Shown here: piece by piece, positions 23,997 through 27,930 of the stretch
Layout: every line of letters starts with the position of its first letter
How positions within the stretch are numbered: the first letter of the stretch is position 1
IMG/VR virus record: IMGVR_UViG_3300011115_000650
Strand: one strand, 5' to 3'
DNA length: 64,000 nucleotides
Origin: a virus
Notes under the pieces: generated by a model
The model's database searches: none
The model's input: the letters and a program-made list of their open reading frames with translations, nothing else
Told to the model about the DNA's origin: nothing
Made by a program: the position numbers and the translations under genes

Positions 23997-24058
23997 CCGG
24001 CATATAAGTATTATTCGTGAACAAAATGATATGTTAGTATCTAGTATAAATATATAGC

Positions 24059-24094
24059 CTAATTGGAAAGTGGTGCTTTAATTGTTGGGTGTGA
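24059..24094 (-). pseudogene. Relic thyA 3' end (SHPTIKAPLSN*)
   Basis: TCA CAC CCA ACA ATT AAA GCA CCA CTT TCC AAT TAG downstream of the HEG; the active thyA ends SHPAIKIPLSN*. Confidence 0.88.
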
Positions 24095-24104
24095 TTAAAA
24101 TACA

Positions 24105-24929
24105 CTAATCTACAAACATCCAATTGTATTTATTTGAGTTGCATCTGTAGTTAACTAATCCTCTCGTAATACCAAAAGCTTTTGCTGCTTCCTGACCTGT
24201 TTGATAGAGAACACCATCAGCTTTTACTTTCTTGCTATTTGAAGGCTTGATTGTTCTAGCATTAGCGTACTCTCTAAGCTTCTGTTTAGTTTCTTCCGTA
24301 TGGGTCTTTCCGTAAAATGGATTGTTAGCTCCTGACCTATCTCTACATTTACCGCAAGCTTTAGACGTCGGATCTATTCTTGCTCCACAATCACAAAAGG
24401 TACGTCCTCCTTTCCAATTTGGATTATTATCACCTTCATAACTTCGACGATTATTCGTACACCTCTCGATCAACTCGGTTGGCTTTTGCTTGCCTTTCCA
24501 GTACCCTTCCTTTCCATACATTCCATTATTCTGTCCTCTAACCTTAGTAGACCTCTCCTCTCGCTCTTCTGCTGATAGAGAATCCCAATACTGCTTTGCT
24601 GTTATTGATTTCTTTTCAAGGTACTCCGGATCGGTGTAGTTGATAAAACTAGAGGTATCACCACCGGTTCCTCCTTCAGTTAGGTTGTATCCGTTTTCGA
24701 TAGCGTTCTTTTCTTTAATCCAGTAAACCTCTCTACTGTTAAGATCTTCCTTATCTATACACTCTTCTAAGATACACTTTGTAAAATTCTCTAGCCCATA
24801 CTTCTGTATAGCTGCTTTGATTAGCTTGCCACTACCAAAATACGAATCGAAGTTAGATCCGCTATACTGTCCAATGTACATTTTTCCATTGAGATTATTT
24901 TTAATCTCGTAGACTATAAATCTTTTCAT
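24105..24929 (-). mobile_element. GIY-YIG homing endonuclease with NUMOD3 repeats
   Basis: IVYEIKN...MYIG...YFGSG, GYNLTEGG, NPFYGKTHTEETK. Confidence 0.9.
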
Positions 24930-24984: not shown

Positions 24985-26148
24985 CTAATTAGAAAGTGGA
25001 ATTTTTATAGCTGGGTGGCTTTGATATCCTTCGATAATAAAATCACCAATCTCATAATGTGCGATGTCATCAACTTTACTATTTAGTATTTTTAACTTCG
25101 GTAATGGGTATGGCTCCCTACTAATCTGTTCCTTAACACCATCAATTTGATTTAGGTAGATGTGACAATCTCCCATATTCGCAATTAATTCATCAGGAAC
25201 CATATTAACTTCTTTGGCTATGATTTCTAAAAGTAGAGCATAACTTGCGATGTTGAATGGGGTACCCAACGGAACATCTTGACTTCTAGTATTATACATT
25301 AAAGAGATTGCTCTGGTTGGGATATTCCATTTATTCATTAACTCAATTATGATGTCATCTTCATTTCTACTATGTCCATAATCTAATAATGATTCATATT
25401 TAAGAACATCAATAGCGTAATCCTTTCTTTCATTTAAACTCAACTCTCTTGTATAAACTTGAAATCCATAATGACAAGGTGGAAGTACCATTGAATCCAA
25501 TTCTCCAACATTCCAAGCATTAACCATTAATCGTCTTGAGTCTGGATTTGTTTTAAGGTCGTTGATTAGGTTTGCGATTTGGTCAACTGCACTCGTTTCT
25601 ACTACAATACTATCATCTGACATATTGTACATTTCCTCAAATTTTCTACGTCTAACATTAGTTGTTTCCCATCTTCTCCATTGATGTCCATAAATTTTTC
25701 CGAGTGACCCCCATTTATTAGCAAACTCATCATCTGTTTTGATTTTGTTGATAAATTCTTCTTCTGATAATATCTCACCATTTTCATTAAATGGTGTTGG
25801 TTTTATTTTTTTACCACCATCTATTTTTAAATAAAAATCATATACTTCTTTATTTTGATTAATTTTTTCAAAAAACGATTTATATGCGTCACCTGTCCAG
25901 ATATTACATTCATTATCAACTAAGTACTTAATATTAGTATCTCCACGTAAGAACCAAAGAAGCTCAGTTACCATAGTTTTAAAAGCTATCTTCTTGGTAG
26001 TTAGGAGTGGAAATCCTTCGGACATTTTATGTCTTATCTGTCTTCCAAATACTGATATAGTACCCGTTCCTGTTCTATCTTGTTTAGTTACCCCATTGTC
26101 TAAAATGTCTTGGAGTAGGTCTGTGTATTGTTTATCTATTGTATTCAT
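24985..26148 (-). CDS. thyA: Thymidylate synthase with large insertions
   Basis: DRTGTGT, ELLWFLRG, PDSRRL, LPPCH, RSQD..LG.PFN, GDCHIY. Confidence 0.95.
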   Translation of the reverse strand: MNTIDKQYTDLLQDILDNGVTKQDRTGTGTISVFGRQIRHKMSEGFPLLTTKKIAFKTMVTELLWFLRGDTNIKYLVDNECNIWTGDAYKSFFEKINQNKEVYDFYLKIDGGKKIKPTPFNENGEILSEEEFINKIKTDDEFANKWGSLGKIYGHQWRRWETTNVRRRKFEEMYNMSDDSIVVETSAVDQIANLINDLKTNPDSRRLMVNAWNVGELDSMVLPPCHYGFQVYTRELSLNERKDYAIDVLKYESLLDYGHSRNEDDIIIELMNKWNIPTRAISLMYNTRSQDVPLGTPFNIASYALLLEIIAKEVNMVPDELIANMGDCHIYLNQIDGVKEQISREPYPLPKLKILNSKVDDIAHYEIGDFIIEGYQSHPAIKIPLSN

Positions 26149-26509
26149 AACTTTCTATTTTTGTATCTTTGTATGTTATTGTGATTAGTTTGGTTGGTAT
26201 GTTTGCTTCATCCATAGCTTTATTATGACCATCAGGATAGTGTAACATTTTACTTTGCGCTTCTAATTCCTTTCTTAAATCTAAATTTTTGTAAGCAATT
26301 CTAAACCTTTCATCTCTACTCAATTCCCTTTCCTCAATCTTTAATCCCCACTTTTCAGAGAACTCAGGATTGGTTTTACATTTGTTGATGAACTCTTCTT
26401 TCCCATACCAATCACCATATATTTGATTTTCACCTTGCACAACATCGTGAATATATGTGAGGTAATTCTCATACGCTTCATCAATAATCTGTTGTTGTTC
26501 ATTATTCAT
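26132..26509 (-). CDS. ThyA-insertion-derived hypothetical protein
   Basis: Four collinear blocks match segments of the adjacent ThyA; flanked by a 20-bp direct repeat. Confidence 0.7.
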   Translation of the reverse strand: MNNEQQQIIDEAYENYLTYIHDVVQGENQIYGDWYGKEEFINKCKTNPEFSEKWGLKIEERELSRDERFRIAYKNLDLRKELEAQSKMLHYPDGHNKAMDEANIPTKLITITYKDTKIESYEYNR

Positions 26510-26522
26510 AACTTTCTATTTT
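26142..26522 (-). repeat. 20-bp direct repeat AAAATAGAAAGTTATGAATA (26142-26161 and 26503-26522)
   Basis: Exact copies spanning two consecutive start codons. Confidence 0.85.
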
Positions 26523-26987
26523 ATCGTTGATATATTTTACTAATTGATCGGCATATTCTACATACCATTGTCTGTAGTTGTGAAACATTTTATCCTTTAT
26601 TTCTTCGAAATCACTATAGTGTTTGAAGCAATAATGTAGCCCTTCTTGTTTTATTCTTGATTGAATACGAATCCAATCTTCCTGAGTATTTACTTCTACT
26701 TCGTATCTTTCTCCGCCTACGTATCTATTCAAAGGTATTGTGTATTTGAAAGATTCACTATACTCTACTACGTCTTCTATCCATCTTAAGATTAGGCCTT
26801 CAGGATAGTTTTTATCTAAGTCTTCGGCAATATCTGACATATTAAAGTAATAGATATCTCCGAAATTAGCTATTCTGCCTACTTCATCACTCACCCAATA
26901 TTCAAATTCTACTTTGTGCTTCTCGCAGAATAACTTTACGTATTTATTGCAAATTTCTTTGTATTGTTCTTGTAATCTTGGTTTCAT
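26502..26987 (-). CDS. Hypothetical protein
   Basis: Likely start MKPRLQE; ends KIESYE*. Confidence 0.62.
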   Translation of the reverse strand: MKPRLQEQYKEICNKYVKLFCEKHKVEFEYWVSDEVGRIANFGDIYYFNMSDIAEDLDKNYPEGLILRWIEDVVEYSESFKYTIPLNRYVGGERYEVEVNTQEDWIRIQSRIKQEGLHYCFKHYSDFEEIKDKMFHNYRQWYVEYADQLVKYINDKIESYE

Positions 26988-27010
26988 ATTTTTATAGTTT
27001 GTTTTTAATA

Positions 27011-27592
27011 TTAGTCCCACCATTCGTGAGATCTTTCTTCTAAAATTTTCCATAGTAACTTATTAGCCCTTTTCTCATTAGCTAACCCCACATACAAACT
27101 TAATCGGTCTTTATCTACTTCATCTGGACGTTCTAGCTTTACTTTGCGTAATGTATTTGGATACTTTGCTAAATAATCATCAAACTTCTCCCATACAATC
27201 GTACTGTCCATTGTAGAGTAATCTGGATAGTCTTCACATGGTGTAAAGCTCCATTTAAACTCATGATAGTCATATTTCTCCAGACCGTAAAACTCTTCTA
27301 ATTTCCTTTCTAATAAGTTTAACACTGTAGTCATATCACGGTTATTTCTTTCAATACCCATATGTCTATTACTTTTAACTAAATGCTTTCTTTGAAATTC
27401 AATCTTCTTCTGTAGCATTCTTAGTATGAATGAATCATCCCAATCTCTATCTTTCCATAGAGTTGGTATCCATCTTATGATGTTGTGTATACTATAGCAA
27501 AAATAGTGTATTCTATAATTTACATGTCTATACCATAACTTTCTATCCCATGCTGAATCGTTAGGTACTTTTAGTTTGTGATAAGTTTTCAT
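27011..27592 (-). CDS. Conserved phage protein
   Basis: LWKDRDWD and C-terminal WWD motifs. Confidence 0.72.
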   Translation of the reverse strand: MKTYHKLKVPNDSAWDRKLWYRHVNYRIHYFCYSIHNIIRWIPTLWKDRDWDDSFILRMLQKKIEFQRKHLVKSNRHMGIERNNRDMTTVLNLLERKLEEFYGLEKYDYHEFKWSFTPCEDYPDYSTMDSTIVWEKFDDYLAKYPNTLRKVKLERPDEVDKDRLSLYVGLANEKRANKLLWKILEERSHEWWD

Positions 27593-27930
27593 TATTTAAC
27601 AAATATTTGAATTAATATAATTAAGATACTCAATCCCAGACATACTAGAGTCTTAGGTGTTAGCGGTTCTTTAAATAATAGATACGATAAAACTGTAAAA
27701 ACGATAGCTCCTAATCCAAAACCAATTAATCTTGAGGGCCATAACTGACCATCGAATGCTTCAACAAAGCATTTTACCGATTTCATGAACATATACGTTA
27801 CCGGTATACCCATTAATAAGGAAAACCATAGGTTATTCTTAATCCAATCTATCTTTAACTGTCCCTGTAACTGTAGGAACGTTATCACTTGTGCCGTTAA
27901 TCCCCATAGTATCCCGTAGAGTATTTTCAT
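27592..27930 (-). CDS. 4-TM membrane protein (SMR/DMT-like)
   Basis: Four hydrophobic helices; FKEPLT motif. Confidence 0.65.
   Translation of the reverse strand: MKILYGILWGLTAQVITFLQLQGQLKIDWIKNNLWFSLLMGIPVTYMFMKSVKCFVEAFDGQLWPSRLIGFGLGAIVFTVLSYLLFKEPLTPKTLVCLGLSILIILIQIFVK

Follow-up and report, generated by a model that had tools for sequence, protein, structure and literature searches.

Directly 5' of the thymidylate synthase gene (thyA) of an uncultured freshwater T4-like, Immutovirus-related phage lies a small gene whose 125-residue product aligns to two surface insertions of the synthase and skips the catalytic core between them. The gene was analyzed in a window of 64,000 nt, the whole stretch of DNA under IMG/VR record IMGVR_UViG_3300011115_000650, whose numbering is used for all positions. 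We call the gene the mini-gene and its product the mini-protein. We think it likely that the mini-gene is an accessory, core-less descendant of thyA, which exchanges variable cassettes with thyA at conserved anchors and whole genes at a short linker. The features on which this argument turns are as follows (TS, thymidylate synthase; ORF, open reading frame; HV, hypervariable segment; AF2, AlphaFold2 model).

26132-26509, minus strand: mini-gene, 125 aa, core-less ThyA relative (ORF, family search, hhalign, AF2)
26345-26482, minus strand: mini module 1, residues 10-55, with anchor A1, HV1 (26402-26461) and anchor A2 (aligns to ThyA 87-147; variable middle, conserved flanks)
26171-26344, minus strand: mini module 2, residues 56-113, with a strand, anchor A3 (RELS), HV2 (26204-26305), anchor A4 (NIPT) and a strand (aligns to ThyA 230-289)
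24985-26148, minus strand: thyA, 387-aa long-form TS with intact catalytic motifs (PF00303, PDB TS matches, AF2)
25708-25890, minus strand: ThyA insert 1, residues 87-147, the Lactobacillus casei-type small-domain insert, HV1 at 25765-25872 (PDB TS alignments, hhalign)
25312-25449, minus strand: ThyA insert 2, residues 234-279, in the beta-hairpin after the strand of the catalytic Cys, HV2 at 25327-25425 (absent from PDB TS alignments; variable middle, conserved flanks)
25585-25668, minus strand: third variable region of ThyA (HV3), residues 161-188, without a mini-protein counterpart (alignment; environmental contigs)
26142-26161, minus strand: linker copy 1, where the end of the mini-gene overlaps the thyA start codon (exact 20-bp repeat, junction sequence)
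26503-26522, minus strand: linker copy 2, where the end of a 183-aa gene (tail IESYE) overlaps the mini-gene start codon (exact 20-bp repeat, junction sequence)

A core-less relative of ThyA and its family

The initial annotation had described a 125-aa ORF, which we place at 26132-26509 (minus strand), that matches the adjacent ThyA in four collinear blocks and lacks the catalytic segments PDSRR, PCH and RSxD. BLASTP aligns the two proteins in two collinear high-scoring segment pairs, mini-protein 32-55 with ThyA 124-147 (E 7e-7) and 40-113 with 194-285 (E 9e-4); at the DNA level, 26346-26400 is 75% identical to 25709-25763 over 55 nt. When profiles of 144 mini-proteins and 111 long phage ThyAs are compared with hhalign, one collinear alignment joins mini-protein 11-117 to ThyA 87-147 and 230-289 (probability 99.2%, E 6.9e-20), and all four blocks fall inside it. 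The alignment leaps over ThyA 148-229, an 82-residue piece of catalytic core that contains PDSRR and PCH, and it ends before the RSQD segment. The mini-protein thus shows detectable homology to part of TS, while its catalytic cysteine (PCH), the arginine pair that binds the phosphate of deoxyuridine monophosphate (PDSRR) and the RSxD segment are all absent; it has no Pfam match up to E 0.1 and hence none to PF00303. Neither of the outcomes named in the initial annotation as speaking against it occurred: the alignment is significant, and conserved homologs number in the thousands.

The adjacent ThyA is a complete TS with its catalytic motifs in place. It matches PF00303 with an E of 2.3e-97 over model positions 1-264 of 266, carries PDSRR, PPCH and RSQD, matches TS sequences in PDB at E 1e-72, and has an AF2 model with a mean predicted local distance difference test (pLDDT) of 82.9. 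A small-domain insert of about 50 residues between the IWDEWA helix and the GxLGxVYG loop makes it a long-form TS. Insert 1 and both of its anchor helices align to the enzymes of Staphylococcus aureus (4dq1), Enterococcus faecalis (3uwl) and L. casei (1lca), and a phmmer alignment of ThyA 1-237 with 4dq1 5-216 runs through the insert; exactly these anchors are kept in the N-terminal half of the mini-protein. Unlike the phage protein, the solved long-form enzymes have no second insert, in the hairpin, and no free-standing core-less relatives. Insert 2 is present in 68 of 78 related phage ThyAs and in that of the cultured Flavobacterium phage immuto. The latter enzyme (L001 3410-4681, 423 aa) has the same anchors and inserts as the window ThyA and an additional insert of about 45 residues ahead of the C-terminal REP motif, which starts RELS-like and ends IPT-like; no mini-gene was found in phage immuto. 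Another thyA ORF, of 628 aa (L038 6156-8042), contains a large in-frame insertion.

A search for the stand-alone family, such as the initial annotation had called for, uncovered a large set of metagenomic proteins: 4257 matches at E <= 0.01 among 5.8 billion proteins, and 423 representatives at 50% identity, nearly all of them 90 to 220 residues long and none with a Pfam domain. No Pfam or PHROG model matched the family, tblastn of the mini-protein against 50,697 phage genome records gave no match, and the family profile reached only chance level against PDB sequences (best E 0.44). On phage contigs of 100-290 kb, the mini-gene sits 0 to 3 genes 5' of a thyA of 344-385 aa. Across 85 viral loci we count one to seven copies per stretch of about 8 kb, in the same orientation as thyA, with conserved heads (MNKEQQ) and tails (IESYE). 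In some proteins the module is duplicated (e.g., P0108, P0115, P0395).

Several side observations concern the forms that such modules take. Fused forms among P0389, P0413, P0415 and P0395 include a 479-aa ThyA with a complete mini-protein at its C-terminus, a PurS-domain protein ending in a mini-protein, the N-terminal half of a mini-protein joined to a domain of glycosyltransferase type, and a ThyA in which the RELS-to-NIPT module occurs twice in tandem. A family of 191-aa ORFs found beside mini-genes (L027 1240-1815, L017 4359-4940, L072 4952-5527 and others) matches the giant third insert (residues 161-237) of ThyAs P0277 and P0280 with E from 1e-9 to 1e-11; the third ThyA insert, therefore, also has a free-standing relative.

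Using an alignment of 144 family members, AF2 predicts six helices and a three-stranded sheet for the mini-protein with a pLDDT of 87.8 (at least 84 in all five models) and a predicted template modelling score of 0.73. Secondary structure elements follow the same order as in the inserts of the ThyA model, with one extra C-terminal strand. No informative fold match came from Foldseek against PDB (best E 0.3) or from VIA-align, where the best of 48,161 chains reached Z 4.1 across some 40 residues. A search of the ESM Atlas with the Atlas's own model placed clusters of viral thymidylate synthases nearest (TM score 0.50 over 106 residues), which is a lead and not a proof. The order of secondary structure and this lead suggest that the predicted fold is structurally equivalent to the ThyA inserts. 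A predicted complex of ThyA and mini-protein based on both alignments scored 0.20 (mark 0.32) and counts neither way on binding.

Codon usage was analyzed in 136 distinct mini-gene DNAs. In the central block, amino acids are conserved while their codons vary, including residues of a strand that is specific to mini-proteins and not common to ThyA: at mini-specific L56, E59 and R61, the fraction of non-major codons is 0.40-0.44. The ratio of nonsynonymous to synonymous polymorphism (pN/pS) is 0.28 (pS 0.51) in the block from A2 to A3, which contains strand 56-61. Both observations indicate a translated, selected protein. Within cassette types, pN/pS is 0.32 for HV1 and 0.19 for HV2; this purifying selection implies that cassettes are discrete functional modules and not junk loops.

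Exchange of cassettes and of whole genes

In ThyA and in mini-proteins alike, each insert consists of a hypervariable middle between conserved anchors. Among the 116 mini-proteins parsed with anchor patterns, HV1 has a strong ThyA match at the same position in 20 and HV2 in 70, against 0/116 in each of two controls (wrong position and shuffled sequence). Some pairs are identical, as HV2 of mini-protein P0025 and ThyA P0269; the HV2 cassette of the window mini-protein also occurs inside ThyAs P0359, P0390 and P0395 and in a C-terminal fragment of a split ThyA (P0394). The cassettes are highly diverse, with 41 HV1 types and 49 HV2 types among 68 genes, and the two segments reassort freely: more than one partner type is found for 11 of the 12 HV1 types and 9 of the 10 HV2 types that have several members. 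Within a genome, mini-gene and thyA cassettes have a median normalised similarity of 0.14, and both cassettes are unlike in 14 of 16 pairs.

Traces of the exchange itself are visible in two loci (L027 and L028), where mini-gene and thyA of one phage are 100% identical over a 117-nt tract that extends from RELS to NIPT, the two anchors, and are scarcely alignable outside it. Judged by its sequence, this is a fresh conversion tract. A chimera (P0387) joins a mini-type head to the C-terminal core of ThyA at the NIPT anchor, as would result if a mini-gene had crossed over with the thyA that follows it. Environmental contigs, from metagenomes in which this phage is present, match the flanks of the window mini-gene cassettes and skip HV1 at 26401-26466 and HV2 at 26204-26308/26318; in thyA they skip 25763-25897 (HV1), 25320-25440 (HV2) and 25588-25709 (HV3). 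The intervals skipped in contigs of other phages coincide with the cassettes, consistent with cassette replacement, the sequence between the flanks being invisible to this method.

Some thyA genes of related phages are themselves interrupted. In four loci (L035 4317-6434, L042 4921-6960, L019 4675-6814 and L026 1997-4248), thyA is split into two ORFs by an endonuclease-type gene, DUF7487 in L019 and GIY-YIG in the others. The split point lies ahead of the Cys strand in L026 and inside HV1 in the other three. The gene inserted in L019 ends in the linker tail, and the C-fragment of ThyA there begins with a mini-type head. No group I intron was found with Rfam in the loci with interrupted thyA. 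Since endonuclease genes crowd thyA, break-induced conversion is a plausible, if speculative, driver of cassette exchange.

Whole genes are exchanged at another site. The initial annotation had noted an exact 20-bp repeat over both start codons, and it is indeed found at 26142-26161 and 26503-26522; these are the sole copies in the window even with 3 mismatches allowed (0.08 expected). Within the repeat, the final codons and the stop of one gene overlap the ATG of the gene that follows. A viral contig (L087) is 94% identical to the window from 28298 to 26502 and loses this identity exactly at the repeat. Beyond the breakpoint it has an unrelated 75-aa gene that likewise carries the tail, then a mini-gene of 142 aa whose cassettes are not those of the window, and a thyA in which HV1 is different. 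A degenerate 10-nt core, A[AG]AG[TC]TATGA, is present at 223 coding-strand sites in related loci, and at a single site on the other strand, and joins mini-genes to one another, mini-genes to other genes, other genes among themselves, and genes to thyA. Because it is common to unrelated genes and coincides with the L087 breakpoint, we regard the repeat as a generic, portable stop/start linker for the exchange of whole small genes. The idea of a repeat-bounded cassette thus survives in part: the repeat does bound the mini-gene, but it is not specific to it. No contig bridged 26142 to 26503, so that a variant lacking the mini-gene was not seen, which is no evidence of its absence.

Origin and role of the mini-gene

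We favor an origin of the mini-protein from ThyA, since cellular long-form TS already has insert 1, the well-known small-domain insert of the L. casei type. The mini-protein probably arose from a phage long-form ThyA by loss of the N-terminal, central and C-terminal core. Two non-catalytic surface insertions, the small-domain insert and that in the hairpin after the catalytic cysteine, would have been retained and joined directly; the mini-protein would have gained a helix start at the N-terminus that is specific to the family and a further strand at the C-terminus, and it is predicted to fold independently. Homologous recombination at the anchors exchanges cassettes of mini-genes and thyA, both inside one genome and among phages that infect the same cell, so that the ThyA surface and the mini-proteins share a single stock of discrete peptide modules, each conserved in its own right. 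The linker probably both couples translation, its stop codon overlapping the next ATG, and serves as short homology for the gain, loss and swap of small genes. The mini-protein would display a variable surface like that of the ThyA inserts and most likely engage the same partner, as a free, non-catalytic competitor or adaptor. The earlier proposal that the ThyA insertions form an autonomous domain that was split off gains ground here: the free module folds confidently, with viral TS as the nearest structures, and splitting off is the favored direction.

Several points weigh against this reading. The co-occurrence of mini-genes with insert-bearing ThyA, which the initial annotation had asked to be checked, holds in some phages as adjacency, but of the 30 thyA loci with 6 kb or more of flanking sequence on each side, only 3 have a mini-gene within 8 kb (10 of 78 when all loci are counted). 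Cassette diversity in ThyA is therefore independent of a neighboring mini-gene. As only about 10% of insert-bearing thyA loci have one nearby, the mini-gene is accessory and not required by ThyA. The first ~10 and last ~17 codons of the mini-gene are nearly invariant even at fourfold-degenerate sites (0.02-0.12), so that about 30 nt at the start and about 50 nt at the end are kept in otherwise very divergent copies. With gene ends conserved as DNA, part of the conservation of the family reflects nucleotide-level homogenisation by recombination, or a DNA or RNA signal, and not protein selection. In addition, the pairs used for pN/pS are not independent, and anchor patterns parsed only 116 of 266 mini-proteins. 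Contigs from RNA libraries fall on part of thyA and on a transporter gene only, none on the mini-gene, by a method that does not show transcription. Production of the mini-protein is therefore no more than probable, and its functional role is one that we infer.

Mini-genes might, alternatively, be silent donor cassettes in the manner of pilS, vls or MgPar, that is, mainly a store of loop sequences for gene conversion of thyA whose protein product is irrelevant. They form arrays 5' of thyA and point the same way, contain nothing but variable parts and anchors, nearly always carry cassettes unlike those of thyA in the same genome (the median of 0.14 and the 14 of 16 pairs given above), and have ends conserved at the DNA level; moreover, a conversion tract exists (L027). 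Nonetheless, we judge this explanation unlikely: strand 56-61, which never enters ThyA, is conserved as protein with varying codons (pN/pS 0.28 over the A2-A3 block), start codons and translational coupling are retained, the fold is confident, and some 90% of insert-bearing thyA loci have no mini-gene nearby. A related view, also unlikely and by a shade more so, is that mini-genes act as resident templates for repair and diversification of an essential enzyme, much as in antigenic variation. Here thyA would be cut in or near a variable loop, for instance by homing endonucleases, or a host factor would disfavor the surface that the enzyme presents at the time; a mini-gene carrying another cassette would then be the source of a conversion that rewrites the ThyA surface without importing DNA of a rival phage.

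The initial annotation had proposed a possible role as decoy, regulator or scaffold. A decoy or regulator of the phage's own ThyA, either a mimic that absorbs a host factor aimed at the enzyme or a protein that binds and tunes it, would fit the scaffold and module pool common to both proteins, as well as a mini-gene that adjoins thyA and is probably co-transcribed with it (the ORFs overlap and no terminator lies between). We hold this to be quite improbable. A mimic should carry the cassettes of the resident enzyme, yet both cassettes differ in 14 of 16 same-genome pairs, and most insert-bearing ThyAs have no mini-gene nearby.

The initial annotation had also considered the reverse, a free domain that donated the inserts to ThyA. 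This is right in that variable cassettes do move between mini-genes and thyA, and duplication of the module within some proteins (the above P0108, P0115 and P0395) would suit it. As an account of origin, however, it is very improbable: insert 1 with both anchors is found in cellular long-form TS of Firmicutes, whose structures date back decades, a single contiguous domain cannot insert into two separate loops, and mini-genes are rarer than insert-bearing ThyAs. Finally, loss of the catalytic core is what a functionless, decaying partial duplication of thyA would show; thousands of intact homologs, purifying selection and a confident fold refute it, and we leave it next to no chance.

Genomic setting, related systems and significance

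Among sequenced phages, the window is closest to the Flavobacterium phages vB_FspM_immuto (160 kb; MW353175-7), to which one quarter of the query aligns with a DNA identity of about 71%, and public runs that contain this stretch are freshwater and viral metagenomes. The window holds a single copy of the mini-gene, within a minus-strand chain of overlapping genes that runs from a small membrane protein through a 193-aa ORF, a 183-aa ORF, the mini-gene and thyA to a GIY-YIG endonuclease. The other members of the chain are as follows.

27592-27930, minus strand: gene of a small membrane protein (ORF list)
between the 27592-27930 gene and the 183-aa gene, minus strand: 193-aa ORF (ORF list)
26502-27053, minus strand: 183-aa gene upstream of the mini-gene, unrelated to it in sequence and ending in the same linker-encoded tail (ORF, junction sequence)
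24105-24929, minus strand: gene of an I-TevI-like GIY-YIG homing endonuclease, directly 3' of thyA (Pfam)

The product of the 183-aa gene matches PHROGs of unknown function. A scan restricted to the sigma-70 consensus found no promoter-like site, nor was any terminator-like site found, separating the 183-aa gene, the mini-gene and thyA; as the ORFs overlap and no terminator stands between, these genes are likely co-transcribed and translationally coupled. Pfam assigns to the endonuclease an I-TevI DNA-binding domain, a zinc finger, NUMOD3 and GIY-YIG. Just 3' of its gene, an orphan frame at 24040-24110 (minus strand) ends in SHPTIKAPLSN and a stop codon, a near-copy of the last 11 residues of ThyA, which fits the insertion, near the 3' end of thyA, of an endonuclease cassette that supplied a replacement for the end of the gene.

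Segmental gene conversion from partial copies is known from Neisseria (pilS to pilE), Borrelia (vls) and Mycoplasma genitalium (MgPar). As in those systems, partial copies with variable segments and short conserved flanks lie near a full gene and exchange tracts with it. Mini-genes differ in that they are complete ORFs with a start codon and under selection, in contrast to promoterless, truncated, untranslated donors, and in that most thyA loci have none. Edgell et al. are said to have described, in 2010, genes split by free-standing homing endonucleases (Aeh1 nrdA/mobE). A likeness to this is that thyA of related phages is split inside HV1 and that the I-TevI-like gene of the window abuts thyA, but the mini-gene has no catalytic half and stands beside an intact thyA; it is not a fragment of a split enzyme.

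Closer to hand, T-even phages carry gp38 adhesins in which conserved glycine-rich motifs alternate with hypervariable segments (Trojet et al. 2011, PMC3157838). In both systems, several hypervariable segments, each exchanged on its own, are bounded by conserved structural motifs; gp38, however, binds receptors as part of the virion, so that its variation is readily understood, and here a housekeeping nucleotide enzyme and its core-less paralogs vary. The PeSL of T4-type phages is a mobile regulatory cassette composed of an intergenic promoter and a terminator hairpin (Arbiol et al. 2010, PMC2839356; Comeau et al. 2014, PMC4122927). PeSL and linker alike are short repeats between small accessory genes where related phages gain, lose and replace genes, as at the L087 break at 26502, but the linker is a coding stop/start overlap of about 14-20 nt without promoter or hairpin. 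No promoter and stem-loop of this kind was found at 26142-26161 or 26503-26522, the promoter scan covering the sigma-70 consensus only.

None of the systems compared involves a housekeeping enzyme with free-standing core-less copies, and a literature search aimed at such an enzyme with core-less cassette copies gave no description of one among the matches listed. An older claim makes T4 TS a baseplate component, which would be a possible reason for surface variation; no title or abstract listed in a literature search dealt with it.

Few enzymes are as conserved or as thoroughly studied as thymidylate synthase, and many environmental phages treat its surface as a set of interchangeable, conserved peptide modules while keeping catalytically empty, free-standing copies of that surface as separate genes. 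This points to an interaction of ThyA strong enough to drive diversification; its partner might be a host factor, a sensor in host defence, a complex of the phage or a selfish endonuclease. The mini-protein offers a natural example of a foldable domain carved from two loops of an enzyme, and the stop/start linker a second, very compact route for the shuffling of accessory genes in T4-like phages. If mini-genes did prove to be templates, a system resembling antigenic variation would be acting on a viral housekeeping enzyme.

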